A DNA stretch of 64,000 nucleotides from an uncultured Candidatus Saccharibacteria bacterium (GTDB lineage Bacteria > Patescibacteriota > Andersenbacteria > UBA10190): assembly GCA_964371255.1 (NCBI GenBank), contig CAYJKV010000002.1, forward strand, positions 130,553 through 194,552, in the 5' to 3' direction. A program made the translations under genes and the position numbers. This document shows, in pieces, positions 24,833-64,000 of this stretch. Under the pieces are notes generated by a model that was not told where the DNA came from, did no database searches, and was given only the letters and a program-made list of their open reading frames with translations. How positions within the stretch are numbered: position 1 is the first letter of the stretch; the number at the start of each line of letters is the position of its first letter.

Positions 24833-25465
24833 TTGGCCGCGTTGCCTATTTAAAAAAGTTGTTGGCACCTCAGCTATTCTTCCTGCCAATCTAACTACTT
24901 GGTATAATTCCTGGCTTAACATTATATATCCATCCGCGTCCAATTCGCTTAAATTCAATTGCTCAATTAGTTTTCGTCTAAAAACACGGTACCCGTTCGT
25001 ATAGTCGCTCACCCCCGCCTTTAACACCAGCTTGGCCGACAAATTAGCCACCCGGCTGAAGACATGTCTGTACCAAGGCCAGCCAATAATCTTGCTCGTT
25101 TTTAGATAGCGTGAACCAATTACTAAATCAGCCTCGGTGGTTTTATTTAACAATTTTGGCAATTCCTTGGGGTCATGGGATCCGTCCGCGTCGGCCACGG
25201 CGATTAAATCGGCATCAGAATTCTCAATGACCCATTCGTAGCCTTTTTTCACTGCCCCACCCCTACCCCGCTTCCCGCATTTGATCAAAGCAACAGTCGA
25301 GTCATTCTGATAGTTTTTTCTTACCAACTCATCAGTTCCATCAGCTGAGCTGTCGGCAATGACAATCTCTATACCTTCCGCCGCCTTCTTAAAGGCTTCA
25401 ATTATATCTAATATATTTTTCTTTTCGTTTAAGGTCGGAATTATAATCGCAACGCTTTTTGTCAT
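24716..25465 (-). CDS. Polyprenol-phosphate glycosyltransferase, GT2 (DPM1/GtrB-like)
   Basis: VAIIIPTLNEKKNILDII...IVIADSSADGTDELV and AVADADGSHDP (DxD). 249 aa. Confidence 0.8.
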   Translation of the reverse strand: MTKSVAIIIPTLNEKKNILDIIEAFKKAAEGIEIVIADSSADGTDELVRKNYQNDSTVALIKCGKRGRGGAVKKGYEWVIENSDADLIAVADADGSHDPKELPKLLNKTTEADLVIGSRYLKTSKIIGWPWYRHVFSRVANLSAKLVLKAGVSDYTNGYRVFRRKLIEQLNLSELDADGYIMLSQELYQVVRLAGRIAEVPTTFLNRQRGQSNFHLGLIMESGMIMWRLWRAMNKTQQSSGKIRQDHKE

Positions 25466-31394: not shown

Positions 31395-32339
31395 TTACTT
31401 CCCCCTTGCTAACTCTTCTATTAGTTTTTCTGTTATAAACTCCTCAACCCTTCTCATTTCATCATAGGTCGCACCGCCGATATGGGGCGTGATTATTACG
31501 TTACCATGGTTTCTTGCGTATCTGATGATTTGATTATTTTGAATTTGCCCGCTTATCTCATCAGTGATCACGTCCAGCCCCGCTCCACCAATTCTTTTGC
31601 GTCGCAGCGCCACGATTAAATCCCGCTCCCGCACCACCGCTCCCCGGCTCGTATTTATGAGAATCTGCCCGCTCTTTGCCCGATTAAAATAGTCTTGCCC
31701 GATTAAGCCAGTAGTTTCTGTATTTAACGGCACGTGCACAGACACGATATCAGCTGCCTTTGCTAAGGTAGCCAGTGATCTTACTTTTGTATACCTGCCA
31801 TAATGCTTATGCGGATCATGATATATAACCTTTGCTCCCAGGGCCGTTACCAATCGGGCTGTTATTGTACCTAACCGTCCCATTCCGATAATCCCCACAG
31901 TCCTGCCTTTCATTGATCGACCAACCCATCGCTCCCTCTCCCACTTGCCAACTAAAACTTCTTGGCTTGCCGGTATAATGTTGCGTATTAGGTTTAGCAT
32001 TAGGCCCACGGCTAGCTCAGCGGTCGGGGTTATTGTCTTAAGAAAATTATTCTCGCCTTGTAGGGATATCACTTTAATACCGCGTAACTTTGCCGTTTTT
32101 ACATCTATATGATCAATTCCCGTCGTAGGCGTGGCGATAAATTTTGTACGTTTCGTTGCGTTAATAATTCTCTTATCAACCTTGATTCCTAATCTCACGA
32201 TAATTCCATCATACTGGTTGATGCTCTTTTGTAACTTTTGATGATCACACCGGCCCTTCACCACTTGCCAACCGGCTCGTTTCATCCGTTTAATGGCCTT
32301 GGCGCTGAAATCTTTGCTTTCTGTTATCAGCACCTTCAT
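31395..32339 (-). CDS. D-isomer-specific 2-hydroxyacid dehydrogenase (NAD-binding)
   Basis: GRTVGIIGMGRLGTITARL Rossmann motif. 314 aa. 4-nt overlap with neuA. Confidence 0.7.
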   Translation of the reverse strand: MKVLITESKDFSAKAIKRMKRAGWQVVKGRCDHQKLQKSINQYDGIIVRLGIKVDKRIINATKRTKFIATPTTGIDHIDVKTAKLRGIKVISLQGENNFLKTITPTAELAVGLMLNLIRNIIPASQEVLVGKWERERWVGRSMKGRTVGIIGMGRLGTITARLVTALGAKVIYHDPHKHYGRYTKVRSLATLAKAADIVSVHVPLNTETTGLIGQDYFNRAKSGQILINTSRGAVVRERDLIVALRRKRIGGAGLDVITDEISGQIQNNQIIRYARNHGNVIITPHIGGATYDEMRRVEEFITEKLIEELARGK

Positions 32340-33082
32340 TGTTTTGTCGCCATTTTATAATCTGAATTTTTTAAATAATATTCCGCCAATCTTAAATCCT
32401 CCAAGGTGTCAATATTGACTGATCTGTTTACCGGCATTAAATAGGGACGACAATCCTCGGACACAAACTTCTCTTGCTCGAGCAGATAGGACGTTTTCAC
32501 TAAGTAAATTGCTCCGTTTCTCCATACTGCTTCCGGAAACCGCTGTCTTGGCATCCCCGCTGGCGTTGGTATTACTTGAGTAACCCGTGTTTTATTTTTC
32601 AAGTAATACATGTACCAGGGATGATAAGCCACCATTCGTGTGAAACTGCAAACGCTATTGACTCGGTATTTTTCCATGATGGCTAAAGCCGCGTCTATGT
32701 CCTCAGCCCTTCTCAGCGGAGCGGTTGGCTGTAACAGCAACACGTATCTATATTTTTTATCGGTTCTTTTTAATATGTCTTTTATCACCTCAATGATATT
32801 TGTTCTGTCTTGAGCAAGTTCATGCGGTCTCAAGTACGGCACGTGACCGCCATAAGCCTCGGCTACTTTCCGTATTTTTTTGTCATCAGTTGAGACAACA
32901 TAATCAAATCTGTGTTTTGTTTTTTGGATAGCTTCCAGGGTATATGCAATCAGTGGTTTACCATGCAGCTCTACTATATTTTTATATTTTATACCCTTTG
33001 ATCCGCCGCGTGCCGGCACTATGCCTAATACTGGTCCCAAAGTGTCTCGTGATTTTCTGGTCGCCATATCCTTGGTTGTCAC
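32336..33082 (-). CDS. neuA: CMP-nonulosonic acid synthetase (acylneuraminate cytidylyltransferase family)
   Basis: LGIVPARGGSKGIKYKNIVELHGKPLIAYTL; CTP_transf_3 fold. 248 aa. Confidence 0.75.
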   Translation of the reverse strand: MTTKDMATRKSRDTLGPVLGIVPARGGSKGIKYKNIVELHGKPLIAYTLEAIQKTKHRFDYVVSTDDKKIRKVAEAYGGHVPYLRPHELAQDRTNIIEVIKDILKRTDKKYRYVLLLQPTAPLRRAEDIDAALAIMEKYRVNSVCSFTRMVAYHPWYMYYLKNKTRVTQVIPTPAGMPRQRFPEAVWRNGAIYLVKTSYLLEQEKFVSEDCRPYLMPVNRSVNIDTLEDLRLAEYYLKNSDYKMATKQ

Positions 33083-33091
33083 ATTGTTGCC

Positions 33092-34225
33092 TTAACTCTG
33101 CTTATAAAATACTTCTTGCAGGCTAACCCTGCGTTGATCATCTGTCGTTAAAGGCTCCCCCGCCTTTATATCACGAACCGCTTTTTTCCCTACCACCAAC
33201 GGATAATTTTCTGATCCTATTCCTTTAATTAACGCTTGCGGCCGCATGGCCCAGAGATCGCTCGCTTTTATCACTTCGCCTTTTTTAATATCGCGGCTCG
33301 CCACCAAGCTTTTTCTAAATAATCCTCTAAATCCTGAGTGACTGTCCGCTAGCTCTTCTGACACTTGGCCAATTATTGCTGGATTATCTGCCACCATATT
33401 AACGCCTTGCCGTACTGTTCTCGTCATTGCTGTAAACTCATTAGGCGTCATTGATACTTTATGGTCAGCGCCCCACCAGCGACGATTTAACGAGAAATGC
33501 TTTTCAATTATGGTTGCGCCTTGTTTAACCGCCTGAATTACTCCCTGGTACCCCAATGAATGATCGGAGAATCCAATCGGAATTTGATATCTGGCCTTAT
33601 ACCACCCAATCGTGGCAACATTTAAATCTTCCACTGGACAAGGATATTTCGACACGCAATGCAATAAAGCCAGGTGCTTATTTTTTGTCTTTATATATTT
33701 TATTGCGGCCTCCACTTCCGCCCGGCTGCTCATCCCTGTCGAGATAATGATTGGCTGGCGCAAAGTCCGCAAATAATCCAATAAAACAAAGTCCAAAATA
33801 TCACCGGACCCTACTTTCCATAACGGCACGCCAATCTTATTTAACATCTTAGCCGCTCCTCGGCTCATTGGCGTTGAAAAAAATAATATTCGTTGCTCCG
33901 TACAATACTTCTTAATGGCTTTCCACCACTCCTCGTTGCCCAGCAAACTATTCCGCTTGACCCACGCGTATCTATCTGCCCCTTTGAAATGGGGTGATAC
34001 AACTTTAATCTGCCACTGTTCATCGCCCACCTGATGCGTCTGGAATTTTACCGCGTCCGCCCCTGCTGCTCTGGCCTGACTGATCAATTGTTTGGCATTG
34101 TACAAGTAATGTCCGCGGGACTGCTCCTTTTTTGTCCGGATGAAATTTTTACCGATTTCAGCAATAAAAAAAACATTTTTAGACCCAATCTTGCTCCAAA
34201 TATTTACATTTTTATTGCTCTTCAT
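33092..34225 (-). CDS. neuB: Nonulosonic acid synthase (N-acetylneuraminate synthase family)
   Basis: NeuB TIM-barrel motifs (IGFSDHSLG, AVKQGATIIEKHFSL) plus a C-terminal SAF/antifreeze-like domain (ASRDIKKGEVIKASDLWAMRP). Confidence 0.8.
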   Translation of the reverse strand: MKSNKNVNIWSKIGSKNVFFIAEIGKNFIRTKKEQSRGHYLYNAKQLISQARAAGADAVKFQTHQVGDEQWQIKVVSPHFKGADRYAWVKRNSLLGNEEWWKAIKKYCTEQRILFFSTPMSRGAAKMLNKIGVPLWKVGSGDILDFVLLDYLRTLRQPIIISTGMSSRAEVEAAIKYIKTKNKHLALLHCVSKYPCPVEDLNVATIGWYKARYQIPIGFSDHSLGYQGVIQAVKQGATIIEKHFSLNRRWWGADHKVSMTPNEFTAMTRTVRQGVNMVADNPAIIGQVSEELADSHSGFRGLFRKSLVASRDIKKGEVIKASDLWAMRPQALIKGIGSENYPLVVGKKAVRDIKAGEPLTTDDQRRVSLQEVFYKQS

Positions 34226-34242
34226 AAATCAGGACGGGTCTC

Positions 34243-35400
34243 TCAATACGTAATCATTTTTTGCTGTTTTATCTCTACTTTCTTTAGGATCGCCATGATT
34301 TTTTTGGCAGTTTCTCCGTTGCCGTATAAAAATGATCTCTCATACTTACCGTGCCTCACCTGTTTTCTTATCGCTTGTACAATTTTCCTTTCATCAAATA
34401 ACACGTTCATCACATTTTTTCCCATTAAACGGCCATGTTGTCTGGTACCGACATTAACGGCCGGCACACCCAACCAGCCGCTTTCTTTTATGCCGACTGA
34501 CGAATTGCCGATCACTGCCTGAGCTTGGTTTAGAACATTCGCGAAATGCTCCGGTTTCAAATATCGAATAAATCTGATTTGATAGGCATCATCATGTTCA
34601 ATCTGCCATTCCCTGATCCGTTTGGCGATCGCGTCAGACCCCGCACCTAAATTCGGCCAAATCCATACGGCTTGCATTTTTAAACTATGTATCGCCGTCA
34701 ACAAACATTCGGCCTGTTGCCTCGCCAGATTAGCCTCCGTCGTGACTGGATTCAGCATCACCACTGCGTAAGGCTGTCCCAGATCTAATTTTGCCCCCGT
34801 CCCGTGCTTGTTAATCGTGGCATCAGGCACATGCTTCAGAAACTTAATTTGTCGGAGAAAATCCACATCTAGGCTGCCCACATTCCATATTCGATCCTTT
34901 CTCTCTCCCAGTCTAATTAATCTGGTTTTTGCCTGTTCATTGGTGACAAAATGCCCATGGGCTAGTTTTGTAATAGCGTGCCGGACACTCTCGTCAATTG
35001 ATCCACTGACATCCCCGCCTTCTAAATGAATTAAAGTTTTATTCAAATAAGCCGCCGCCGCGGCTATGGGCAGCACTTCAAACCGATCACCCCTTACAAT
35101 CACTACGTCTGATTCTAAGTTCTCCATCCCAGTCGCAAACTCCAGCATGCCCAGGGCGGCTGTTTTAGCCATTCCGAGGTGCTCGCCTCCTTCAATCGCT
35201 GTTGGTATTTTAAGATCAGGTTCAAACCCATGCGCCCTCAACTCGGCCACGACATTGCCATAACGATATGTCAACGCGCCGCCCCCCACAATTATCTGCA
35301 GCCTAAACCTCGACGATCGTTTGATCTCTTTTAATAAAGTCACAAGTCTACTAAGATGAGCCTTGTCAGTGATCACTACACAGATGTTTCTTTTATGCAT
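34243..35400 (-). CDS. neuC: UDP-N-acetylglucosamine 2-epimerase (hydrolysing), NeuC/LegG family
   Basis: VIVRGDRFEVLPIAAAAAYLNKTLIHLEGGDVSGSIDESVRHAITKLAHGHF. The ATG at 35400 is preferred over the TTG at 35403. Confidence 0.75.
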   Translation of the reverse strand: MHKRNICVVITDKAHLSRLVTLLKEIKRSSRFRLQIIVGGGALTYRYGNVVAELRAHGFEPDLKIPTAIEGGEHLGMAKTAALGMLEFATGMENLESDVVIVRGDRFEVLPIAAAAAYLNKTLIHLEGGDVSGSIDESVRHAITKLAHGHFVTNEQAKTRLIRLGERKDRIWNVGSLDVDFLRQIKFLKHVPDATINKHGTGAKLDLGQPYAVVMLNPVTTEANLARQQAECLLTAIHSLKMQAVWIWPNLGAGSDAIAKRIREWQIEHDDAYQIRFIRYLKPEHFANVLNQAQAVIGNSSVGIKESGWLGVPAVNVGTRQHGRLMGKNVMNVLFDERKIVQAIRKQVRHGKYERSFLYGNGETAKKIMAILKKVEIKQQKMITY

Positions 35401-35409
35401 CAATTTAAT

Positions 35410-45898: not shown

Positions 45899-46735
45899 TT
45901 ACTGCTTGGTTTCCTTTAATCGACCAATGAAATACACCGCTTCGTGATCATCCCATGATGTTCTGCCGACTCTGCCTTTTTTCTTAACGACATTTCGGTA
46001 CAATGAATTCCAGTTTTTCTCCAAGAATTCATCTATCACAGATCTATCTACCTTCAGAGGATGACCAGCGTCGTATCGGTCTTTTAGGTTCTCCGATAAA
46101 TCAGCTCCATGGTAGTACTTATCTGCCATTACCAAAACCGCTCCCGGGGCAGCCATACTTAAAATCTTTTGCCAAACCACCTCCACGTTCTGGCAATGTT
46201 CCAACACATTGATTAACAATATGAGATCAAACTTCACTTTTGTATCAAAGTCCTCAATGGCGCTGTCGATGATCTGCACTTTTTTGTGCCAAGGCCAATA
46301 AACTGGCGTCTGCATAACTTGTTCTCTCACCCACATCCGCCCGTCCTTATACCGGCAAAAACGATGTTTTAAATATTGTTTGATCAACGGATCCAGCAAC
46401 CATATATTATCTATTTTGGCCGCCTGCGCCACGTACCTGATGTTCGTAAAAGGGCCGCATCCTAATTCAATGCCTTTTTCAAATGTCAGGCCGCGCAAAG
46501 CCTGGTAATTATTAAACGCTATTTTATGCCAGGTGTTGTTATCTTCTCGTGTCCATCGACCATCCACCAGCCAGGTTTTTTGTTCAAACTCCTGCGCTTT
46601 CAACCATCTCTCCTTGTCAACTCTCAAAACGCCCCTTTTTTCTTGCAGCCATCTTAGATCATTATTTTGCGCCAGTCTTTTCCTGGCTTCCTCTCCTTGC
46701 CATACTTTACGATCACTCTCGACATACAAACTCAT
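45899..46735 (-). CDS. Class-I SAM-dependent methyltransferase
   Basis: GIELGCGPFTN...DLILLINVLEHC...GAVLVMAD. Confidence 0.55.
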   Translation of the reverse strand: MSLYVESDRKVWQGEEARKRLAQNNDLRWLQEKRGVLRVDKERWLKAQEFEQKTWLVDGRWTREDNNTWHKIAFNNYQALRGLTFEKGIELGCGPFTNIRYVAQAAKIDNIWLLDPLIKQYLKHRFCRYKDGRMWVREQVMQTPVYWPWHKKVQIIDSAIEDFDTKVKFDLILLINVLEHCQNVEVVWQKILSMAAPGAVLVMADKYYHGADLSENLKDRYDAGHPLKVDRSVIDEFLEKNWNSLYRNVVKKKGRVGRTSWDDHEAVYFIGRLKETKQ

Positions 46736-48000
46736 AAAATTTTCTTGTTACCAAATAAATGTTTTTTTATTAACCAATAAACTGCTCCGGAATACAAAGC
46801 CCCTAATAATATATAATATATTATAGATCCAGCCACTGCGCCGCTAATGCCCCACCTGGGGATTAGCACAACATACGCTATCACATTTGCCCCTCCGGCT
46901 ATCATACCAATTGACGTGAATAGAATTTCTCGTCTCTCTTTTATTAGAATGTACCCCCAAATCGACGCCAGCCAATGAAAAGGGATCACCAATAAATACC
47001 ATTGGGCGTATCCGCTTGATTCCCGGTATTCCATACCAAAGAGATTGACAATCAACAGGGGCGTCAGCACCCACAATGCTGCCAGACTGCTCAGCATCAC
47101 GCCGGCGATTTTAAAACCTTGTGCTTTGTACCAGCGGACAATCTCGCTCGTGCCAGTTTTGTATATTTTGGGTATATATGCAGACATCATCCCGCCTAAT
47201 ACCAGTTTTACTCCCTCGCCTATTTTAGTCGCGATTGCATAAATAGCTAACGCCTCTAATCCCAACCAGCCGACTAATACCAGACGATCAACCCGCGAGT
47301 ACAATACATTAAATAATTCGGAAATAAATAATTTATAACCTGACTTCATCCACCCCTCTTCTATTAAATTGTTAACTATCAGCCGGCGCACTTTTTTAAA
47401 AAATATTATATTGAACCCGGCCTGCCCCACAATCATGACGGCAAACGGGACCACGATACTGCTTCTATTCAACCACACCGCTCCACCAACTGCGGCTAAT
47501 ATCACTATTGATGAAATGGCGTAGTAGCGTGACCGTTCGGCAAATCTTTCCTTTGCCTGCAGCACGACATCCCAGCGCCTCAAAACTGTATACCAGGGAA
47601 ATATTGGCGCCGTTATTAATAACCCAAGCCCAATGTGTGCATTACTGTATACTAAACACCACCAGCCCATAGCGGCTAACACCGCGGCTCCCATGATGCT
47701 CCAACGCCAACTAAGCCTTAACACCTCACGCAGCGTCCCATCGTACCCAGTTGATAAGGATCTCAGCAGCGAACTATTAAAGCCGGTAATGGCCAGCACA
47801 GCTGCCAGGTTGTAAATCGAGAACAGCAATTCATACTCACCTACGAGTTTTAGGCTCGTTAATCTTGTTAACAAAACGATGATGCCCAAATCCGCTATCA
47901 TCCTCCATACCTTCTCCAGGTTCAACCAAAAACTGCTCTTTATCAGATAGCTTGAGTCCACGCCAAACCACCCTTGCATTCGTTGGCTAATATTCCCCAT
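46732..48000 (-). CDS. Wzx/MOP-family polysaccharide-biosynthesis flippase (second copy)
   Basis: 422 aa with about 12 TM segments. 4-nt overlap with the methyltransferase gene. Confidence 0.55.
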   Translation of the reverse strand: MGNISQRMQGWFGVDSSYLIKSSFWLNLEKVWRMIADLGIIVLLTRLTSLKLVGEYELLFSIYNLAAVLAITGFNSSLLRSLSTGYDGTLREVLRLSWRWSIMGAAVLAAMGWWCLVYSNAHIGLGLLITAPIFPWYTVLRRWDVVLQAKERFAERSRYYAISSIVILAAVGGAVWLNRSSIVVPFAVMIVGQAGFNIIFFKKVRRLIVNNLIEEGWMKSGYKLFISELFNVLYSRVDRLVLVGWLGLEALAIYAIATKIGEGVKLVLGGMMSAYIPKIYKTGTSEIVRWYKAQGFKIAGVMLSSLAALWVLTPLLIVNLFGMEYRESSGYAQWYLLVIPFHWLASIWGYILIKERREILFTSIGMIAGGANVIAYVVLIPRWGISGAVAGSIIYYILLGALYSGAVYWLIKKHLFGNKKIL

Positions 48001-49582: not shown

Positions 49583-51016
49583 ATGTCTCAGCCCAATTGG
49601 TTTACTATCATCTTCCTGCTTGCCGCCTTTTTAGTATTGCTCATCTTGTCTCTCCAGTATCCGCTCAGTACTTCCTTCCCCATCGGCGGTGATGCGGCTT
49701 ATTATGCCCGTCGCGCTCAGATATTTCTGGAATTTTTCCATGCGCCTGGGCCATCCATCCTGGCACTCAAATCCTCCTGGTATCCTTTGTCACTTCTGAT
49801 CTTTTCTTCGTCCGCCATTATCCCGCTGGATTGGCCCATTCGCTTCACCTGGTTCATGGTCATCGCGCACGTTTCAGTCGGCGTTTCATTAGCTTTGCTC
49901 TTGCGTCGTTTATCTGGCTGGTCCGCGGCCGCCTTTGCTATGTTCATCTGGGGTATCACGACCACCGGTGTAAACAGTAACTTTGAAGATGGTACCCTGG
50001 CTCAATTAATTAGTTTCGCCTTTTTAGCTTTGTTTCTGGAACGTTTTGTGGCCGGCGCCAAATGGTCCGCTCTGTTATGGCTGCTGGCCACCTGCTTAGC
50101 TCATCCGATTACCGGCTTATCCATTCTGGTCACCTTGCTCATTGCCTTACCCGCTTTCTTGTCCAGCTGGCTATCTTTGTCTGCGTCTGACAAAAAATTG
50201 CTGCTGGTGATTTGTGGCGCCAGCCTGGCGCTGCTGAGTTTAACCCTCTTTACCGGCCGACAAATTTTTTCTCATTCAAGTTTTATTACCGGTGTCGCTG
50301 ACGTCCCTTTTATCAATATCCTTGTCTCTAGTTTTGCTCCTTTTGTCGCTCTCGCCCCTCTTGGTTTGCTTTTACTTTTACGGTCCGATCACTCCCCGAC
50401 TACTAAATATATATTCGCTTTTCTATTCAGCCTCTCCATTCTCATGGGCGGTAATGATCTTTTGGGTATTGCCGTCTGGACGCGGCGATTACTGCCTCTC
50501 TTTATCTTTGTTGTCACTATTTTATCTGCCCTGTCATTACCTTATCTCTTGCGGTTCCTTTGCCCAGGCCGTTTCACCCGTGCTGGTTTTGTCAGCCTGA
50601 TTATGGTGTATTTTGCATCAATGACGTGGCAAAACAATCATCACATATTCCGTCATTACGAAAATCCGTCAAATTACGCCCGTATTCATCCCGAAGAACT
50701 TGAAGCTATGCGATGGTTCCGTGATAATCTACCCGCCAGCAGTTATATCACCACCTCCAATAAAAACCGCCACACCGAATGGCTGCCGGTCATTACCCCG
50801 TTTCAGTGGTTGCCAGTATCACCGGATGATGATTCTTTGTCACACCCCGTGCGGGATAAGTTTGATTCTCTGACTTATTACAAATATAAGTATGTTGCCT
50901 TTTTGACCAGGCGCGAAAACGTCCCGGAGTATATCCGTCAATCTCCGGATCAATACCCGCTTGTCTTCGCCAATAAATCCGTTGTCTTATATAAAGTATC
51001 GTCAATTTATGATTAA
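49583..51016 (+). CDS. Polytopic membrane protein (477 aa), GT-C/PMT_2-like
   Basis: Eleven or more TM segments. First-loop PIGGDAAYYARRAQ resembles the motif of the other PMT_2-like paralogs. Confidence 0.45.
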   Translation: MSQPNWFTIIFLLAAFLVLLILSLQYPLSTSFPIGGDAAYYARRAQIFLEFFHAPGPSILALKSSWYPLSLLIFSSSAIIPLDWPIRFTWFMVIAHVSVGVSLALLLRRLSGWSAAAFAMFIWGITTTGVNSNFEDGTLAQLISFAFLALFLERFVAGAKWSALLWLLATCLAHPITGLSILVTLLIALPAFLSSWLSLSASDKKLLLVICGASLALLSLTLFTGRQIFSHSSFITGVADVPFINILVSSFAPFVALAPLGLLLLLRSDHSPTTKYIFAFLFSLSILMGGNDLLGIAVWTRRLLPLFIFVVTILSALSLPYLLRFLCPGRFTRAGFVSLIMVYFASMTWQNNHHIFRHYENPSNYARIHPEELEAMRWFRDNLPASSYITTSNKNRHTEWLPVITPFQWLPVSPDDDSLSHPVRDKFDSLTYYKYKYVAFLTRRENVPEYIRQSPDQYPLVFANKSVVLYKVSSIYD

Positions 51017-55567: not shown

Positions 55568-58024
55568 ATGATACCACGCTTCAATTTTGCTTATCTAACT
55601 GCCCTCTTTCTGGTCGTCGGTTCAGGCACTGCTGCTCTGCTACTAATGTTAGCACCCACTTTACCCGCATGGGGGATTCGTCATACCCCACATGACGAGC
55701 CCAGGTTCTTGACCTTAACTAGTCAGCAAACAATCGACCAGACTTTTCTTTTTGAATATCAGCGGCTGGATACTGTCGTGCTTTGGCTTGATCCCGACTC
55801 GCTGGCAAATCCTCAGGGCCTCCTGGCTTTGACCGTCAAAACTAACACCGACAGTACGACCAGCTATCTCCCGGTCGCCAACATACCACCTGATGGTATA
55901 GCTGTTTTTTCTTTTCAACCGCCTGTGTCTGCACCAGTCAATCAATCAGCCACCATGCGTCTAACCTTGGCTGATACTGATCGATCTCTCCGCCTGAAAT
56001 ATCAGATTGATGCCTCCATCTACCCCGACGGCGACTTACATGCCACCTCTCATCCGAATCGGGTTGGCGATATCGCCTGGCAAAGCCGCTACCAGCGTCC
56101 TGCCCTCGTCTCGCCGCTTATTCATTGGTTATATGTTATCTTTCTGCCCTTAGCCGGAATTCTAGCAGCTAGTCTGCTGATATATATTTATCATTTGCCC
56201 ACAACCATTCCCTCGCTAACCTTCAGTCCATCCCCCGGCACAAAGACTGCTCTTTTACACCGCCTTCCTCGCCCGCTGCCGCGTTTCATTTTAGTATTGT
56301 TGCCTGCCTTGCTGACTGTTTTTGTCTTTCTTTTTTATTCTTCATCTCTCATCCTCCCCGGTACCTGGATTGGCACCGCCGACTTCAGTAAAGAGTTAAG
56401 CTATGTTACCTCTTCGGCCTTGGCCCTTCGCGCCGGTGCCTGGCCGGTCTGGACACATTTTACCTGCGGCGGTATGAGTTTATTGGGTAATCCGGAAGCC
56501 ACCACACTCAGTATCAGCACTCTCCTCGCCGCTCTAACCTCTCGTCCTGAGTTATCTTTATGGTTAACTCTGTCCATCGAAGCCACTTTAGCTTGTCTGG
56601 GTACATACCTATTAGCTAAAGCCTTACGTCTTTCTACACCAGCTAGCCTCTTAGCAGCTGCCATCGCTTCATTATCGGCTGTTTTTCCCTATAAAATCGT
56701 CGAGGGCATAGTCATGATCGGCGGTCCGCTGGCTTTCACTCCCTGGGCATTTCTGGGCTTATATCGAACCCTAAAATCAGCCTCCTCGTACTGGCTGGTC
56801 CTTTGTAGTCTAAGCTTAATAGCTATCTTTTGGCGCGGTGATGTCCATATTATTTTACTGGTTATTCTGATCATTACCCTCTGGTGCCTCGCCAGTTCAA
56901 TATTACAGCGTCGCCCATGGCCCCTCCTCGTTCTGCTCGCAATTCTGCTCATATTTTTCTTAGGTGCCAGTCTTAAAGTTCTGCCCTACCTGGAACAAAT
57001 TAATTTAATCAACAGCCAGGTTGATCCTCATAGCGCCCAGCTTACACAGCAAAAGCTATGGTCTGACATTTTTCTTTCCGTTCAGGCACGCACCAATAAA
57101 ATCCCGGTATTGCATGGGTTGCCCGAGCACTTTGGTTATTTTGGTGCTTACGTCGGATTATTGCCAATGCTCCTGGTGTTATTAAGTCTATTTTCTTCTA
57201 ATCCGTTTCGTTATTTTGGCTGGTTCTTTCTGCTTGTATCCTTATTGCTTGCTGATGGTTATTTGTATGAACATTGGCTTCGTTTCCTTGGTCCGCTTTC
57301 TTCCCTTTTGCGTATGCCTAGCCGCTTTCTGACCGTTTCAGTCCTTTTTGTTGCGTTACTAGCCGGCCTGGGCTGGGATGTTCTCCGGGCAAAGCTCCGT
57401 CGTTTTCAAATCCCACCACACCCATATTCTCCGCTTATCCTGGCACTATTAGTCGGCATATTAGCTTGGCCTCTTTATGACTTAACTCGAGCCAGTTATT
57501 CTATCTTACAGCGCGATCTATCAAACCGCAGCTCTACCATCCTGCCTCCGCCCGTCGTTCCCACCCTGACCGCACATTTGAATAGCTCCCCGGCTGATCA
57601 TAAACACCCTTCTATCCTCTTACAATCAGGCTACTTATTGCCTCATATTTGTGGCGATCAAAACAATCCGCCCGAATTTTTGTCGCGCATATCAGACACG
57701 GCTTCGCTGGCTGATTATCCCGCCACCCTGGAACCAAATCAAATCACCCTCTATAATCTCCCCGCTCTATCATCTATCTATATCAAAACTCGCTTTGTTT
57801 CCTCATGGCAGCCATCGGCTGGCATAGTTCTGGCCGCTCCCGATGAATCCCTCCAGTTAATTACCCCCCCTCAACCAATCTCTTCAATTCGATTACAATA
57901 TCATTCAGCGACTATCCGTTCCCAACAAGTTTTGCTGCTTACATTTATCACAATTATTCTAGTTATGTTCGTTCGCCCGGTTTACAAAATTGCTCTAACC
58001 GCCTTACACTGGCGCCATGCTTAA
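55568..58024 (+). CDS. YfhO-like polytopic membrane protein (818 aa) with an N-terminal extracytoplasmic domain
   Basis: About 230-aa N-terminal domain, then RAGAWPVWTHFTCGGMSLLGNPEATTLSISTLL, which matches the YfhO consensus. Confidence 0.5.
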   Translation: MIPRFNFAYLTALFLVVGSGTAALLLMLAPTLPAWGIRHTPHDEPRFLTLTSQQTIDQTFLFEYQRLDTVVLWLDPDSLANPQGLLALTVKTNTDSTTSYLPVANIPPDGIAVFSFQPPVSAPVNQSATMRLTLADTDRSLRLKYQIDASIYPDGDLHATSHPNRVGDIAWQSRYQRPALVSPLIHWLYVIFLPLAGILAASLLIYIYHLPTTIPSLTFSPSPGTKTALLHRLPRPLPRFILVLLPALLTVFVFLFYSSSLILPGTWIGTADFSKELSYVTSSALALRAGAWPVWTHFTCGGMSLLGNPEATTLSISTLLAALTSRPELSLWLTLSIEATLACLGTYLLAKALRLSTPASLLAAAIASLSAVFPYKIVEGIVMIGGPLAFTPWAFLGLYRTLKSASSYWLVLCSLSLIAIFWRGDVHIILLVILIITLWCLASSILQRRPWPLLVLLAILLIFFLGASLKVLPYLEQINLINSQVDPHSAQLTQQKLWSDIFLSVQARTNKIPVLHGLPEHFGYFGAYVGLLPMLLVLLSLFSSNPFRYFGWFFLLVSLLLADGYLYEHWLRFLGPLSSLLRMPSRFLTVSVLFVALLAGLGWDVLRAKLRRFQIPPHPYSPLILALLVGILAWPLYDLTRASYSILQRDLSNRSSTILPPPVVPTLTAHLNSSPADHKHPSILLQSGYLLPHICGDQNNPPEFLSRISDTASLADYPATLEPNQITLYNLPALSSIYIKTRFVSSWQPSAGIVLAAPDESLQLITPPQPISSIRLQYHSATIRSQQVLLLTFITIILVMFVRPVYKIALTALHWRHA

Positions 58025-60797
58025 AAAAATTGCTTGGCCGGACCAAATTGCTATTGCAGCGCTAGCCGTCGCCTGGGTGGCTTTCTTTAGTCGAACCCTT
58101 TTTAATCAGCTGGTGTATTTTCTGGATGATTTGAAGATTATTTATTACCCCTTGGAATCGGTCTATGCCACCATGCAGCAAGCTAACCAGCTTCCCCTTT
58201 GGAGCCGCTTTTTTGGATTTGGACAGCCTTTGCTGGCTTGGGGCCAATTAGGTTTTTTTAATCCGCTTCATTTAACATTACGCTCTTTCTCTCTCCACCC
58301 CATCACTCTGCTGCAGGTTTCCATCTTGATGTATTTCGCGCTCGGTTCACTTGGTATGTTCATCTTTCTTCGCCGACTCAAAATATCTGCCGTCGCTGCC
58401 TTAGCCGGTGCCTTCGTCTTTACTTACGGCGGTTTCCACGTCGGTCATCTTAATCATGTCAATTTTTATACCGCGACCATGCTGTTGCCTTGGTTGCTAT
58501 CTTCACTCGACTGGTTCTCTACCCGACGGCACTTGCCATCATTCCTACTCACTGCCCTTTTATCTGCCACTATTGCGCTCAGTGGTCAGCCTCAGATCGT
58601 CCTCTACACGTTTGTCTTGGCAGCGATTTGGTTTGCCATCTTATTAATACGATCAGCGCATCGCTTCAAACTTTTCTGTCTGACGTCGCTGCTGGGTCTT
58701 TTGTCATTAACCCTCGCTGCTCCTGCCATTCTGCCCTTAGCAGAATTCCTGCCTGTCACCGAGCGTGCTTACGGACTTGGCCGAGCTGAAATTCTTGAAT
58801 TTAGTTACCCCCCCAGCCATGCCATCACTCTGCTGTTCCCCTATTTCTTTGGCGACCATCACTATTACTGGGGAGCCAAAAACTTCCAAGAATTAGCTGC
58901 CTACACCGGGATCCTGCCTCTCCTGCTGATTGGCCTGTCTTTGTTTTCTCGTCGGCGCACTTTGCAGCTGTTTGGGCTGACCGTTACTATTCTGGGCCTG
59001 CTGTTCGCTCTCGGTCAATATTCGCCCTTATTTTTGTGGCTGGTGGACCATGGCCTGATTAAATCCCTTTCTATACCCGGCCGTTTTACTTTCTTTTTCA
59101 TTGTGGGAGTCTCTATCCTGTCCGCCTTGGGTTTAGATACCGTCCGTCACTTAGCCTTCCGGCAAAAATCGCTCGCTTTTCTGCTTTGTCTCGCTCTTGT
59201 TTGGCTCCTCTTCACGCCCGTTATCAATCTGCTTTACCACAACCAAAGCCTCTATCAACACTGGCTGTCATTCTTGAGTTATACCCACTCTGAACCGTAT
59301 TTAATCGCTCTCGGTATATTATTGTTCTTAGGACTGTGCTTGCTCCCCAACCGTTATTTACGTTTCCATTACGCCTGGCTTGTCTCGAGCTGTATTGCGG
59401 TTACTCTCATTATCTACGGATGGAATTATAATCCACTCACGCCATCGACGACTGCTTATCAATCCTCACCATTTTTTGACGAGCTTCAGTCCTACTTCCA
59501 ATCCCACAATACACCCCCTCGAATTTATCACGTCGAACACCCTTCAATTGCTGCTCGGCGGCGCACCGAGCCTATCACCCCCCTCTTTACGGTCATTCAG
59601 CCAATTACGACTTCCGGCACCTCCCTGTCTTGTTTTACCATGCCTTATCAATTAAGTTCTGACCGTTCGTCCGGCTCCGTGGTCGACATCTCACTGACCG
59701 CCTCACCCACTGGCGACCCGCTGTCTTCAATTACGATCGACCCGGCTTCACTCAATGGCACTCTCTTCAATATATGTTTTAACCCTGTCCCCACAAAGGT
59801 TGGAGACCGGCTCTGGTTACGCTTTAGCAGTCAAGCTGACAGCGGGTTTCGTTTGATTTACCAGCCGGCCAGTTTCGCTGATCAGGCCGCTTATCTATTG
59901 CGCGTCACAAACCCCACCGCCGCTGAACTGCAAAGATCTATCAAGCCAATAACTATCGTGGTTTATGCCCCTGACGATCTATCCTCTGATTTATCAGCCA
60001 GGCGGCTTGATCGTCACATCAATGCGACTGCGTTTGCCAGTTCCGCTAATTGGATTGGTGCCTTGTCTGTTAAGACATATCGAAGTTTTGTCGCTTCCCT
60101 GCTGGATGATGACATTGATCCCATACATAACGATAGCGTGTCAGTCATCAATGACCGCCGAGCGATCATTAACTTAGCGGGCATTACTCACCTGGTGGAA
60201 ACAGCCGTTATTAATACTGACTATAGCTATATCACTGCTGCTGGCTTCAAGTTGGTCTCCTCCGATTCCATTCAAAACAACGTCCTTCGTCTTCATCAAA
60301 ATCAACTTGTTCTCCCCAAAGCCTGGTTAGTCAAACAGGCCGTGTTTTCTCCGGTTGACGACGAGACCGTCAGCGCTATTCGACAGCGTAATGACTCCGT
60401 TCGGGAATTAGTCTATATTAACGGACCAACTCCTCCGGACGTCTTATCCTCAATGGATCCAACTGCCTTAGTCAGTCAGGTCTCCGTCACGCGTTATGAC
60501 GATACGATTATTGATTTGCAGGTTGAAACCAACCAGTCCGCCTGGCTCGTCTTTAACGATACATCGACCCCGGCCTGGCATACCTATATCGATGACCAGC
60601 CCGCGCCTTACTACACGGCTTTTTCATTATTCAAAGCGGCCCAAGTGCCGGCTGGCCAGCATACCGTGTCTTTCCGCTATGAATCACGCCTGACCAACCT
60701 ATCCATCCATCTCGCTGCAGTTGGCCTGCTCATAGTTATCATTCTATTCGCATTTCAGGCTACCGGCGGGTTTAACCGTCCCGGTGCTGCTGTCTAA
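58017..60797 (+). CDS. YfhO-family membrane protein (926 aa) with a long C-terminal extracytoplasmic domain
   Basis: N-terminal LFNQLVYFLDDLKIIYYPLESVY...QLPLWSRFFGFGQPLLAWGQLGFFNPLHL is a canonical YfhO N-terminus. Confidence 0.65.
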   Translation: MLKKIAWPDQIAIAALAVAWVAFFSRTLFNQLVYFLDDLKIIYYPLESVYATMQQANQLPLWSRFFGFGQPLLAWGQLGFFNPLHLTLRSFSLHPITLLQVSILMYFALGSLGMFIFLRRLKISAVAALAGAFVFTYGGFHVGHLNHVNFYTATMLLPWLLSSLDWFSTRRHLPSFLLTALLSATIALSGQPQIVLYTFVLAAIWFAILLIRSAHRFKLFCLTSLLGLLSLTLAAPAILPLAEFLPVTERAYGLGRAEILEFSYPPSHAITLLFPYFFGDHHYYWGAKNFQELAAYTGILPLLLIGLSLFSRRRTLQLFGLTVTILGLLFALGQYSPLFLWLVDHGLIKSLSIPGRFTFFFIVGVSILSALGLDTVRHLAFRQKSLAFLLCLALVWLLFTPVINLLYHNQSLYQHWLSFLSYTHSEPYLIALGILLFLGLCLLPNRYLRFHYAWLVSSCIAVTLIIYGWNYNPLTPSTTAYQSSPFFDELQSYFQSHNTPPRIYHVEHPSIAARRRTEPITPLFTVIQPITTSGTSLSCFTMPYQLSSDRSSGSVVDISLTASPTGDPLSSITIDPASLNGTLFNICFNPVPTKVGDRLWLRFSSQADSGFRLIYQPASFADQAAYLLRVTNPTAAELQRSIKPITIVVYAPDDLSSDLSARRLDRHINATAFASSANWIGALSVKTYRSFVASLLDDDIDPIHNDSVSVINDRRAIINLAGITHLVETAVINTDYSYITAAGFKLVSSDSIQNNVLRLHQNQLVLPKAWLVKQAVFSPVDDETVSAIRQRNDSVRELVYINGPTPPDVLSSMDPTALVSQVSVTRYDDTIIDLQVETNQSAWLVFNDTSTPAWHTYIDDQPAPYYTAFSLFKAAQVPAGQHTVSFRYESRLTNLSIHLAAVGLLIVIILFAFQATGGFNRPGAAV

Positions 60798-60834
60798 TTT
60801 GCGATAAAAGACGATTAGTCACCGGTCTAACCAT

Positions 60835-62790
60835 TTAACGCTCGGGATTTTTCAAAGCGGCCATCTGGTCTTTTTTTAATTTCACTAAATTACTTCTGGC
60901 CGCAGCTAGCTGAGGGTCAAGCGCTAAAGCTTGCTGGAGCGCTGTTTCCGCGTTCTGCCAATCGCCTGCCATCGCATACAGGGCCCCCAGTCGATTGAAC
61001 CACGTCGCATGCCAATTTTCTATTTCTACCGCTTCCGCTAGCGCGGCTATCGCCTCCTCATTTCGTTTATCAGCTAGCAGGGCATCAGCCAGGCTCGCCC
61101 AACAACTGGCGCAATTCGGCTTAAGCGTAATGCTCTGCCGGTAAGCATCTGCCGCTTTCTTATAATCCTGCCGCAGCAAGTATACGTTCCCTAAATTTGT
61201 GTAACCGCTGATCAGATCAGGCTTCAACTCAATCGCTCTTTGCAGCACGGTTGCTGCTTCAGAAGTACGTCTGGTTTTTCCTAGTAAAGCACCTAAATTT
61301 ATCATTACTTCGAAGTTGTCAGGGTGATAAGTTAAAGCTTGTCGGTAGACTTTCTCCGCTTCGCCTGGCCGTTGTTCTTCCTCGTATGCCAAACCTAGAT
61401 TATTTAATGGTCGGGCTTTTTGTGGCGATTTATTGACAGCTTCAGACCACAATGATAAGGCGCTGCCCCACGCCTCGTTTCTCCAATAAGTCATCCCCCC
61501 CAGAACTGCTACTAATAACGCGATTGCTAAGGCCGGTCTTGCTAACGCCTTGATGGACTGTCTTTTGTTTTTGGCATAATGGGCCAGCCACCAAGCTAAA
61601 CCGTCCGCCAATATTATTACCACTCCAATCATGGGCAAATATAGTCGATGTTCAAAAATATTGTCTTTAATCGGTATAAAACTTGACTCCACTGATAAGG
61701 TTAAAAAGAACCATATAATGCCGAACGTGCCAACGTAACGTTTCCGTCTAAACAACCACAAACCCACACCAACCAAACCAATAATAGGCAGTAGATAAAT
61801 AAACGATGAGGGCTCCCCAGCCTCTTGCCAAGGTATGTCATGATCAATATTCAAGCCCGCCGGCCAAACAATCAACTGCAAATATTTAGTCACCACCCGC
61901 CACTCTGTAACAAAGTATGTCCAGCGTGAAATTTCCTGATTTTCTGCCGCCACATTATTAATCCGGCTCAACGTAACTTTATCAAAAATATTTTGATTAT
62001 AAGTCTCAGGCGATACCTCAGCATCATGAATTATTAAGCCTCTTACCTCTAATAAATATGCTGGAATTATCAGAACTGTTAACACCCATGGTAAAATTTT
62101 CCACCACCGCTTCATCACCTTGCGCCAGGTATATGAAAAAAATAAATACTCAATCGTCACAATCGTCATTGGTAGCGTAATTGCAATTTCTTTAGAATGC
62201 ATCGCCAACACGCTGCTCATCATCGATAATCCCGCCCACCCCCAGACTGCTCGTTTACTGGTGCTCTCCCGATAAAGCCAATAAGTCACCACTGCCCCGA
62301 CATAAAACAAGGTCGTCAGTAAAACCATTCTTTGCACAATATAGTTAACGCTTTGGGTTTGGATGGGATGAACTAGAAAGAATAATCCCGCCGTGATTGC
62401 CGCCAACCAATGATTATCGATACTCATCCAGCGATTGTGCCATTGCTGTTGGCTATAAGCTCGACGCGCGACCAGATAAACCAGACTGATCACTAACCCA
62501 GTCGTCACTAGATGAAGCGTAATATTGACAGTATGATAACCTTCTACTGCTAATTGCCCCCAGACGTAATTAATATCCAGAGTAAAATAGGGGATCGCTC
62601 TCGTGCCCAAAAAGGCCGGGACCGACCACTTAACCCGGTGACGATCGTCATTTTGCACAATCGAGTGTATGTCATCCAAGACAAACGGCGCATGCCAGGT
62701 GTTACTGTACAAAATAAAACCGATCAAGATAATCAAAACGGCTAGGCTGGTCTTTTCCCGTATCCGCAGACGATCAACAAAAGAATACAT
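60835..62790 (-). CDS. TMTC-like protein: N-terminal polytopic PMT-like membrane domain plus C-terminal tetratricopeptide repeats
   Basis: About 400-aa membrane domain (FVLDDIHSIVQNDD...IFEHRLYLPMIG) followed by at least 6 TPR units (NLGLAYEEEQRPGEAEKVYRQAL...). Confidence 0.65.
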   Translation of the reverse strand: MYSFVDRLRIREKTSLAVLIILIGFILYSNTWHAPFVLDDIHSIVQNDDRHRVKWSVPAFLGTRAIPYFTLDINYVWGQLAVEGYHTVNITLHLVTTGLVISLVYLVARRAYSQQQWHNRWMSIDNHWLAAITAGLFFLVHPIQTQSVNYIVQRMVLLTTLFYVGAVVTYWLYRESTSKRAVWGWAGLSMMSSVLAMHSKEIAITLPMTIVTIEYLFFSYTWRKVMKRWWKILPWVLTVLIIPAYLLEVRGLIIHDAEVSPETYNQNIFDKVTLSRINNVAAENQEISRWTYFVTEWRVVTKYLQLIVWPAGLNIDHDIPWQEAGEPSSFIYLLPIIGLVGVGLWLFRRKRYVGTFGIIWFFLTLSVESSFIPIKDNIFEHRLYLPMIGVVIILADGLAWWLAHYAKNKRQSIKALARPALAIALLVAVLGGMTYWRNEAWGSALSLWSEAVNKSPQKARPLNNLGLAYEEEQRPGEAEKVYRQALTYHPDNFEVMINLGALLGKTRRTSEAATVLQRAIELKPDLISGYTNLGNVYLLRQDYKKAADAYRQSITLKPNCASCWASLADALLADKRNEEAIAALAEAVEIENWHATWFNRLGALYAMAGDWQNAETALQQALALDPQLAAARSNLVKLKKDQMAALKNPER

Positions 62791-62791
62791 A

Positions 62792-64000
62792 TTAAGGCCG
62801 TTCTAATTGAGTCATATATTTCCTCGCTTCTTCATGGTTCGGATTAATAGCCAGTATCGCCTGCCATATTTCCTCCGCTTTTTTATTATTACCTAACTTA
62901 ATAAACACTTTAGCCAGATTACTCATGACTGCCGTGTCGCCTTTCTCCAGCTGTAAATAAAAGATATAGGCCCTGGCCGCTGACTCATACTCACCCTGGT
63001 TAGCTAAAACATTGCCTAAATTACCATAGGCAGGCGCCAGTCGTGGATTTAGTTGTAACGCCTTCTCTAGCTCCGTTCTTGCCTCCGTCATACGATTTAC
63101 TGCTCCAAGCGCAGCGCCCAATTTGCTATGCCACAACGCTTCTCCGGGTACCATGTTGATAGCCTGCCGATACGCCTCAATAGCTTCTTCATACTTTTCT
63201 TGTTTCACTAACACATCCCCTAAATTTCTCCATACCCCGGCGTCTTTAGTATTAAGGGAAATTGATGTTCGGTAGGCTTCCTCCGCCGCCGCCAACTTAC
63301 CTTGCATCATCAAAACATTACCCAAATTATTATAGGCAGCATCATGATTCGGGTTGATAGCCAGCGCTTCTTGTACCTCCCCGATTGCCTCTTCGTACCT
63401 CCCCAGGACACCGTAAATTGAGCCTAAATTGTTATGAGCGGAAACACTCTTCGGATCAATCTCTAGTTCCCGTTTATATAACGCTTCCGCTTCTCCAAAC
63501 ATCCGACGATCTAAAAAGGCTTTGCCTAAATTGTTGTGTGGCCTGGCTTTATTAGGAGCTTTTTCCTTGGCGTCTGTCCACAATGTCACCTCGTCTTTCC
63601 ACACCTTGTTGCGTTCATAGCTCGCTACTGCTAAGCCAACAACCCCAACCAAACACAGACAAACTAGCCAGGTCTCCGTGATCCTGCTTCTTTTTACTTT
63701 CTTGTTCACCACCACCAATACCATCTGTCCTACATCGCCCACCAGCAATGCCGCCCCTATCATCGGCAAATACAATCTATGCTCAAATATTACGTCAATG
63801 ATCGGAAAGAAGCTGGATTCTGGTAATAAGGCGATATAAAAGAAAATAATACCCAAAGCCGGTATTTTTCGACCCTTAGACAACAATAAAATCGCTACGC
63901 CAATCAACATTCCGTGCAATATTAAAGACCAGACAGTAGCCCGATCATTCAATGTTAATGTTAGCGGGTAATCATGATCAATGTTTTGGCCGGTCGGCCA
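62792..64000 (-). CDS. TMTC-like (PMT-like membrane domain plus TPR) paralog; 5' end beyond the window
   Basis: IIDVIFEHRLYLPMIGAALLV plus at least 7 C-terminal TPRs. My translation upstream of 63952 continues in frame (WPTGQNIDHDYPLTL, matching WPAGLNIDHDIPW of the paralog). The gene is therefore truncated by the window edge. Confidence 0.6.
   Translation of the reverse strand, partial: WPTGQNIDHDYPLTLTLNDRATVWSLILHGMLIGVAILLLSKGRKIPALGIIFFYIALLPESSFFPIIDVIFEHRLYLPMIGAALLVGDVGQMVLVVVNKKVKRSRITETWLVCLCLVGVVGLAVASYERNKVWKDEVTLWTDAKEKAPNKARPHNNLGKAFLDRRMFGEAEALYKRELEIDPKSVSAHNNLGSIYGVLGRYEEAIGEVQEALAINPNHDAAYNNLGNVLMMQGKLAAAEEAYRTSISLNTKDAGVWRNLGDVLVKQEKYEEAIEAYRQAINMVPGEALWHSKLGAALGAVNRMTEARTELEKALQLNPRLAPAYGNLGNVLANQGEYESAARAYIFYLQLEKGDTAVMSNLAKVFIKLGNNKKAEEIWQAILAINPNHEEARKYMTQLERP

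Follow-up and report, generated by a model that had tools for sequence, protein, structure and literature searches.

A 64,000-nucleotide stretch of DNA (the window) from an uncultured Candidatus Saccharibacteria bacterium (GenBank assembly GCA_964371255.1, contig CAYJKV010000002.1, positions 130,553 to 194,552 of the forward strand) ends in two adjacent minus-strand open reading frames (ORFs), ORF A (60835-62790) and ORF B (62792-64000, continuing past the window end), whose products join a polytopic membrane domain to C-terminal tetratricopeptide repeats (TPRs). The favored reading of this pair, to which a probability of roughly 0.6 is assigned, is that ORF A and ORF B are co-transcribed GT-C glycosyltransferases resembling the animal TMTC1-4 proteins, and that they would transfer single sugars from an undecaprenyl-phosphate-sugar, outside the cell, to an acceptor chosen by the TPRs, probably Ser/Thr residues of proteins. 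The components of this reading are held with different confidence. Judging from sequence, the two proteins are very probably catalytically active GT-C enzymes that use a polyprenyl-phosphate sugar; a protein acceptor, suggested by the TPRs and by homology, is an even call; and mannose is an unlikely choice of sugar. An initial annotation of the stretch had proposed a eukaryote-style protein O-mannosylation system, and of that proposal the class of enzyme is upheld, as is a donor module that is plausible, whereas mannose, a protein acceptor, and functional linkage within the island are conjectural. For the window, the gain in annotation is that two 'TPR proteins' become GT-C glycosyltransferases and that a donor module is identified; the kind of system was already known.

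The tandem pair and its relation to TMTC1-4

ORF A is complete, with an ATG start and 651 amino acids (aa), and is classed from AlphaFold2 (AF2) and hhalign results as a TMTC-like GT-C glycosyltransferase with TPRs. ORF B is represented by the C-terminal 402 aa of a paralog, comprising about 130 aa of membrane domain with the last transmembrane (TM) helices, followed by seven TPRs. Residues 307-708 of P0020, a metagenomic protein of 708 aa, match this visible part at 400 of 402 positions, and this 99%-identical full-length copy indicates that the full ORF B shares the two-part layout of ORF A. The two paralogs are 40% identical over 640 aa. A single base separates the TAA stop of ORF B from the ATG of ORF A, which suggests one operon with translational coupling of B and A; promoter and terminator consensus sequences sought in 60600-64000 were matched only weakly. 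In both proteins, Pfam and NCBIfam recognized TPR families only. The two adjacent paralogs with a GT-C-like domain and C-terminal TPRs described in the initial annotation are therefore real, and the membrane domain of about 400 aa ascribed to both is present within the window for ORF A, but for ORF B only through the database copy P0020.

Homology to TMTC1-4 is carried by the membrane domain of ORF A (aa 1-443; 61462-62790, minus strand), which has about 11 predicted TM helices and a predicted cytoplasmic N-terminus. Comparisons used the alignment of TMTC1-4 N-terminal domains that Eisenhaber et al. 2021 give in their supplement (PMC7801869) and two bacterial alignments, A2 with 24 membrane domains and the larger A1 with 54 sequences, both of which include A-type and B-type paralogs. 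Alignment of the bacterial family to the TMTC1-4 N-domains with hhalign gave a probability of ~100% and E 2.9e-38 over 382 columns, pairing ORF A residues 13-439 with TMTC positions 4-434. The A2 profile scored 92-149 bits by hmmsearch on all 12 of the 12 TMTC N-domains tested, and BLASTP with ORF A residues 1-455 matched Drosophila TMTC1 at E 2.7e-13, the two being 31% identical across 198 aa (E value for an assumed database of 1e8 residues). When the family profile was aligned by hhalign with the window's own PMT_2-like and YfhO-like proteins, nothing was found (E ~0.18), so the TMTC relation is specific and goes beyond generic GT-C likeness. By these comparisons the membrane domain without its TPRs is homologous specifically to TMTC1-4, and the TMTC1-4 architecture seen by the initial annotation is matched by homology of the membrane domain alone. 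A search with that domain alone retrieved 1,604 proteins, every one of which came from a bacterial genome or a metagenome; several homologs carry the IMG label 'protein O-mannosyl-transferase', and PF08409 (DUF1736), the Pfam family of the TM7-TM8 loop in TMTCs, occurs in none of 120 listed homologs.

Structure prediction points to the same enzyme class. The AF2 model of full-length ORF A reached a predicted local distance difference test score (pLDDT) of 90.8 and a predicted template modeling score (pTM) of 0.87. Foldseek searches with it were swamped by TPR proteins, and residues 1-455 were therefore re-predicted alone for fold searches (pLDDT 82.7, pTM 0.88). Top matches to the shorter model were Pmt4, ArnT, Pmt1-Pmt2, AglB, ALG3, STT3, and Emb proteins; as modeled, the membrane domain is a GT-C fold of about 11 TM helices, and the helix order equals the 11-TM topology of TMTC. 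WaaL, the O-antigen ligase, matched only at E ~1, and a reading of ORF A as an O-antigen ligase (Wzy_C domain, WaaL-like fold) was rejected on fold. The GT-C fold and the first-loop DD (D39-D40) that the initial annotation had singled out for checking are thus both present, and none of the findings it had named as damaging to its case (no GT-C fold, no acidic loop residues, O-antigen-ligase homologs) was encountered.

Conserved residues are distributed over the external loops of the domain in the manner of TMTC. The GT-C 'DD' catalytic motif, D39-D40 of PFVLDD (62671-62676, minus strand), lies in the first external loop directly after TM1 and aligns with D52/D53 of human TMTC1; both residues are invariant in A2, and in A1 D39 is present in all sequences and D40 in >90%. 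The second external loop holds HPIQTQSVNYIVQR (aa 141-154; 62329-62370, minus strand), the counterpart of TMTC HPIHTEAVAGIVGR with the R of motif M3, in which H141, P142, Y150, Q153, and R154 are invariant. In loop 3, KEIAIT (K200-E201...T205; 62176-62193, minus strand) aligns with TMTC KETGIT and is the counterpart of motif M4, KE(T/Q)xxT, which binds phosphate and metal in TMTC models (PMC7801869); K200 is invariant, and E201 and T205 are conserved in at least 90% of sequences. D316 in the NIDHD of loop 4 (61843-61845, minus strand) is likewise invariant and corresponds to the D of the TMTC 'DW' motif M5. The fifth external loop carries ESSFIPIKD...EHRLY (aa 368-384; 61639-61689, minus strand), the counterpart of TMTC PASNLFF..AERVLY (motif M7), with E368, S369, P373, D376, E380, R382, and Y384 invariant. 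Besides D39 and the invariant residues of loops 2-5, R64, N74, and H93 are invariant over 24 to 54 homologs, and the LNY..G..YH.VN..H block that follows motif M2 is conserved. Since the motif residues are conserved in both paralog types, ORF A and ORF B both look catalytically competent.

The active-site loops and the TPRs are predicted to lie on the same side of the membrane. Lys and Arg number 13 in the 45 residues of predicted cytoplasmic loops versus 13 in the 161 residues of external loops, a distribution that would put both the DD loop and the TPRs on the outer side; the fold and the odd number of TM helices point the same way as this positive-inside rule. The TPR domain of ORF A (aa 444-651; 60838-61461, minus strand) consists of six 34-residue repeats identified by Pfam TPR and Foldseek, and Pfam TPR_1/TPR_2 matches in ORF A and ORF B range from E 1e-28 to 1e-44. 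At intervals of 34 residues the repeats show an x-N-L-G motif, of which ORF A has six copies (464, 498, 532, 566, 600, and 634) and ORF B seven, in keeping with the six to eight repeats estimated initially; of 54 aligned homologs, >90% keep N498 and N532. Among the closest Foldseek matches to full-length ORF A are the TPR domain of OGT (1w3b) and also SPY TPR domains. In OGT, substrate peptides are bound in extended form by a ladder of Asn residues at this position of the repeat. By analogy, an OGT-like TPR array with fixed-position Asn residues is the main hint of a protein acceptor.

Candidate donor synthases and the glycan island

Two small GT2 enzymes encoded in the window are candidate donor synthases. 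The first, a PpgS/AglJ/DPM1-like protein of 233 aa (6464-7165, plus strand; Pfam GT2 E 5e-20), scores best on the NCBIfam model for PpgS (141.7 bits) and next on that for AglJ (133.2 bits), both below cutoff. Its 3' end is overlapped by the gene for a small DUF2304 membrane protein of 124 aa (7144-7518, plus strand; Pfam PF10066 E 1.1e-16, 61.5 bits), which the initial annotation had overlooked; Rv3632 of Mycobacterium tuberculosis is a DUF2304 protein as well. The second, a Dol-P-Man synthase/ArnC-like GT2 of 249 aa (24716-25465, minus strand; Pfam GT2 E 1e-23), matches the Pyrococcus furiosus Dol-P-Man synthase 5mlz at E 7.6e-24 and ArnC at 1.4e-10, and has NCBIfam matches to AglJ and PpgS. 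On PDB and NCBIfam matches both are of Dpm1/PpgS/ArnC type, which upholds their earlier description as Dpm1/GtrB-like and confirms, at the level of sequence, that they are relatives of enzymes adding one sugar to polyprenyl phosphate. The mannose of the proposed mannosylation is not upheld: the best NCBIfam models of the two proteins are GalNAc, hexose, and Ara4FN enzymes, and all scores fall below the equivalog cutoffs, so that no specific sugar can be assigned. By mechanical gene calls, the gene at 24716-25465 and the convergent plus-strand gene 23399-24832 have 117 bases in common at the 3' end of each (24716-24832).

Similar genes stand directly beside TMTC-like genes in other genomes. In a Bacteroidales genome (locus L007), a 243-aa GT2 and a DUF2304 protein are encoded immediately upstream of a TMTC-like gene, and this GT2 is 31% identical to the product of 6464-7165. 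Across 80 homologous loci from species-representative genomes of several phyla, a PpgS/DPM1-type GT2 lies within 6 kb of the TMTC-like gene at 13, and at three of these 13 a GT2 and a DUF2304 gene adjoin it (L015, a Nitrospirae metagenome-assembled genome (MAG); L062, Geotalea sp. SG265; and L077, a second Bacteroidales MAG). The count of 13/80 was made without a whole-genome control and gives a rough impression of enrichment; the adjacent GT2, DUF2304, and TMTC-like operons are the stronger evidence of linkage. The neighborhoods of distant homologs in Desulfonatronovibrio and Manganitrophus held no informative partners.

The 64-kb window is a polysaccharide-synthesis island with many GT4 and GT2 genes, sugar-nucleotide modifying enzymes, and a Wzx-type flippase recognized by library scans (46732-48000), and it is syntenic with the Candidatus Andersenbacteria genomes GCA_001817145.1 and GCA_001001305.1. 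Convergent with ORF A is the gene for a YfhO-like polytopic protein of 926 aa (58017-60797, plus strand), with a weak Pfam YfhO match (E 9.9e-7; 27.9 bits vs. a cutoff of 28.5) and a DD at residues 37-38. A polytopic membrane protein of 818 aa without a family match (55568-58024, plus strand) is a further conserved neighbor; its orthologs are of 798-820 aa at related loci L001, L003, and L004, and of 715 aa as called at L002. The YfhO-like gene stands beside the pair at L001-L004, L008, and L009, and the genes keep one order (an epimerase, a protein of 235 aa, a membrane protein of 820 aa, the YfhO-like protein of 924 aa, A, and B) down to 52% ORF A identity. Beyond ORF B, relatives (L001, L002, and L004; at L002, 5673-9862) encode a PMT-family protein of ~694 aa, a protein of 127-142 aa, and a PMT_2 protein of ~486 aa, and the conserved block in these relatives contains six polytopic membrane proteins, four of them recognizable GT-Cs. 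The 127-142-aa protein, which at L002 has 142 aa and spans 7190-7618, has one TM helix, a weak match to the T2SSG pilin fold (E 0.0027), and a C-terminal CGG...C pair; this pilin-like protein of the relatives, encoded outside the window, is a speculative acceptor candidate. There is no canonical pilin gene in the window.

Two PMT_2-family GT-C proteins with a shared QDDAP.Y motif, reported in the initial annotation, were recovered by Pfam. One, of 451 aa (16898-18253, plus strand; PMT_2 E 1.2e-11), has QDDAPSY in its first loop, shows no similarity to the A2 profile, and belongs to a separate GT-C family; the other, of 477 aa (23399-24832, plus strand; PMT_2 E 4.6e-7, PMT E 6.6e-4), has QDDAPAY. 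The 'weaker third' such protein at 49583 was not borne out, as the gene at 49583-51016 has no Pfam or NCBIfam match and only a GGDAAYY stretch. It is one of four genes for large membrane proteins with 6-14 predicted TM helices and without Pfam or NCBIfam matches (4226-6376, minus strand; 8735-10690, 10687-12927, and 49583-51016, plus strand), which could be further GT-Cs or polymerases. A relative of 49583-51016 adjoins TMTC-like and YfhO-like genes in a Saccharibacteria MAG (L009).

Other features of the island were noted in passing. A minus-strand nonulosonic-acid gene set (31395-35403) encodes a 2-hydroxyacid dehydrogenase (31395-32339), a CMP-sugar cytidylyltransferase (32336-33082), a NeuB-like protein (33092-34225), and a UDP-GlcNAc 2-epimerase/NeuC-like protein (34243-35403), and is notable for a candidate phyla radiation (CPR) genome. 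A 372-aa protein (30167-31285, minus strand) matches Pfam RGP, the reversibly glycosylated polypeptide family of plant UDP-arabinose mutases (E 3.3e-12), which is unusual in bacteria. Directly after a PMT_2-like gene and amid glycosyltransferases lies a gene for a 430-aa protein (18250-19542, plus strand) with a partial match to Peptidase_M14, a zinc carboxypeptidase family (E 2.9e-11). GC skew is about -0.22 across the whole window irrespective of gene strand, and third-codon GC skew, read on the coding strand, is -0.26 for plus-strand and +0.31 for minus-strand genes. The absolute skew is 0.24-0.30 in related Andersenbacteria and Saccharibacteria loci (L001, L002, L003, L008, and L009) vs. 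0.02-0.06 in other phyla, and this strong strand compositional bias appears to be a property of the lineage.

Proposed mechanism and competing explanations

In the favored reading, a small PpgS/DPM1-type GT2 at the cytoplasmic face would transfer one sugar from a nucleotide sugar to the lipid carrier, presumably undecaprenyl phosphate; the candidates for this step are 6464-7165 with its DUF2304 partner 7144-7518, and/or 24716-25465. The sugar-lipid would presumably then be flipped across the membrane, and the TMTC-like enzyme would pass its single sugar, outside the cell, to an acceptor held by the TPR domain. The external active site would be formed by the DD of loop 1, the K-E of loop 3, the D of loop 4, and the E-x-R-x-Y of loop 5. 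The likeliest acceptors may be Ser/Thr hydroxyls of envelope proteins, for example pilin-like or S-layer proteins, and A and B might serve different acceptors or conceivably act as a heterodimer.

Several observations weigh against this reading. Even with the limit set at E<=10, no Pfam family matched ORF A residues 1-457, neither PMT_2 nor DUF1736, the two families by which the initial annotation had suggested checking the membrane domain with hidden Markov models; taken literally, that check comes out negative. PDB sequences yielded no meaningful match, whether searched with ORF A as a single sequence or through the family profile. Four of the TMTC motifs are preserved in part: of M2, SHKSYRP, only the Arg is kept (R64, in the aligned segment AFLGTRA); M3, RxD, retains R154 and has lost its Asp; M5, DW, retains D316 with the W replaced by His or Tyr; and M7, ERxxY, retains E, R, and Y with the R displaced by one position. 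A distance of 35-55 kb separates the candidate donor genes from the pair, and the island holds over 15 further glycosyltransferases, which makes this linkage weak and not specific, and a nearby GT2 is absent from 67 of the 80 loci counted and also from L005 and L006. The 'system' of the initial annotation is therefore weakly founded within the island, but finds better support in the GT2, DUF2304, and TMTC-like operons elsewhere and in the DUF2304 gene at 7144-7518. No acceptor gene was identified in the window, and a glycan acceptor would fit the island context equally well (a Wzx-like flippase, genes for nonulosonic acids, and numerous GT4s).

That alternative keeps the chemistry and changes the acceptor to a cell-surface glycan or lipid, so that the enzymes, working outside the membrane, would attach side-branch sugars to a polysaccharide of the envelope or to a teichoic-acid-like polymer and the TPRs would dock them to assembly machinery or bind the polymer; it is possible, with a minority chance of being correct. 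Extracytoplasmic modification of glycans and lipids is familiar from ArnT acting on lipid A, YfhO on teichoic acids, GtrC on O-antigen, and Rv3779 on arabinogalactan. The make-up of the 64-kb island favors it (GT4 and GT2 genes, Wzx-type flippase, the NeuB/NeuC/CMP-transferase set, and sugar-nucleotide enzymes), as do the conserved YfhO-like and PMT_2-type GT-C neighbors and the precedent of M. tuberculosis, in which PpgS-Rv3632 feeds the GT-C Rv3779 and the acceptor is a glycan (PMC3485146). With a glycan acceptor a live rival in such an island, the protein substrate put forward in the initial annotation, which rests on the TPRs and homology, was overstated. A peptide-binding kind of surface, as known from OGT, is nonetheless what an OGT-like TPR array with a conserved Asn at a fixed repeat position resembles, and TfpW of Pseudomonas aeruginosa, with the same architecture, glycosylates a pilin; both argue for a protein acceptor.

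Readings in which the chemistry itself differs fare worse. In the manner of PglB, AglB, and STT3, an oligosaccharyltransferase would take a glycan already built by the glycosyltransferases of the island and move it en bloc to protein, with undecaprenyl-diphosphate as the carrier. This is improbable, given the sequence homology to TMTC, the lack of any detected STT3 family in Pfam, NCBIfam, and PDB profile searches, the agreement of the K-E and E-x-R-x-Y residues with motifs modeled as contacting a monophosphate donor in TMTC and ArnT, and the recurrence of a monosaccharide-phosphate-lipid synthase as partner. That the proteins are not transferases, and represent either a TPR scaffold on a polytopic anchor or a Wzy_C/WaaL-like O-antigen ligase or polymerase with TPRs, would agree with the exclusive TPR matches in Pfam and NCBIfam and with the annotation of homologs as 'tetratricopeptide repeat protein', 'TadD', or 'PilF', but is hardly credible in view of the catalytic residues, acidic as well as basic, that are invariant across the five external loops of both paralogs and on which the reading as a non-catalytic scaffold was rejected.

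The favored reading of ORF A and ORF B can also be extended to the whole neighborhood, at the price of being doubtful when taken together. The block PMT_2, pilin-like protein, PMT, B, A, YfhO-like protein, and 800-aa protein in Andersenbacteria-like CPR bacteria, with the tandem pair as its core, might constitute a dedicated multi-sugar O-glycosylation machine for the pili or other surface proteins of episymbionts, in which A and B would form an obligate heterodimer like Pmt1-Pmt2, and the bacterial family might be the evolutionary source of the animal TMTCs.

A large bacterial family and its closest known systems

Matches to the family profile, clustered at 50% identity, number 96,334 at E<=1e-3, falling to 67,978 when the limit is E<=1e-10 and to 22,436 when it is E<=1e-30, and species-representative genomes contain more than 583 loci with a homolog. 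These are spread over Nitrospirota, Thermodesulfobacteriota, Geobacteraceae, Omnitrophota, Planctomycetota, Bacteroidota, Terriglobia, Saccharibacteria, and Andersenbacteria. All family matches whose source was seen are bacterial, and with 96,334 clusters the description 'eukaryote-style' gets the proportions wrong. Eisenhaber et al. 2021 had already noted essentially full-length homologs, with transferase domain and TPRs, in many poorly characterized prokaryotes (PMC7801869). The statement in the initial annotation that bacterial TMTC-like proteins are essentially uncharacterized is roughly right, but passes over that report, the existing IMG labels, and TfpW as a characterized GT-C protein with TPRs. 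The pair thus belongs to a very large bacterial family already known to exist.

TMTC1-4 are disease-linked human enzymes whose activity was deduced only recently; the copy of the PDB that was searched gave no match to a TMTC sequence. Their bacterial relatives (~68,000 clusters at E<=1e-10) are without assigned function. Should envelope proteins be O-glycosylated by the bacterial enzymes, these would represent a widespread and overlooked route of bacterial protein glycosylation, and would offer tractable models for the mechanism of TMTC and for TPR-guided substrate choice. The most useful lead is provided by the compact GT2, DUF2304, and TMTC-like operons of cultured Geobacteraceae, which are suited to genetics.

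The closest known proteins are the animal TMTC1-4 (CAZy GT105), which share the layout of an N-terminal GT-C domain of ~440 aa with 11 TM helices followed by non-cytoplasmic C-terminal TPRs. Motifs in common are DD, the R of SYRP, LNY..G..YH.VN..H, HPI(H/Q)T(E/Q)..V..IV.R, KE..(I)T, the D of DW, and E.R.LY.P. Identity is nevertheless only 22-31%, DUF1736 is undetected here, and SHKSY is absent, as are the D of RxD and the W of DW. The bacterial proteins would need a bacterial polyprenyl phosphate as carrier, not dolichyl phosphate, and would have no cadherin-type substrates; they carry 6-7 TPRs and are encoded as a tandem pair within a glycan island. The PMT/POMT enzymes (GT39, including bacterial Pmt) are alike at the level of fold only, with 10-11% identity in structural alignments: ORF A has no Pfam match to PMT, PMT_2, or MIR and does not qualify as a member, and TPRs take the place of the lumenal domain. 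ArnT (GT83) differs in having lipid A as acceptor and in lacking a TPR domain, and no sequence-level match to it was found here.

P. aeruginosa TfpW is a protein of 646 aa with a cytoplasmic N-terminus, 11 predicted TM helices, a DDX motif in the first periplasmic loop, and at the C-terminus a sizeable TPR domain in the periplasm, for which ArnT was the best structural template; it is an arabinofuranosyltransferase that uses a lipid-phosphate-monosaccharide donor, with group IV type IV pilin as acceptor (bioRxiv 10.1101/2020.04.19.049825). By this published description it resembles ORF A in architecture, through the 11 TM helices, the first-loop DD/DDX, and the C-terminal TPRs. The tfpW gene lies next to pilA and its product uses D-Araf, whereas the neighbors here are other GT-Cs.

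On the donor side, the nearest parallels are the PpgS-Rv3632-Rv3779 module and that of streptococcal PgfS, which with a GT-C enzyme O-glycosylates Ser/Thr-rich regions. The GT-C partner here belongs to a different family, being TMTC-like with TPRs, and the modules are not adjacent in the window. The likeness lies in the division of labor, in which a small GT2 makes a polyprenyl-phosphate-sugar, a small membrane protein accompanies it, and a GT-C enzyme transfers the sugar outside; the GT2 at 6464-7165, best matched by the PpgS model, is followed by a DUF2304 gene, a pairing reminiscent of PpgS-Rv3632.

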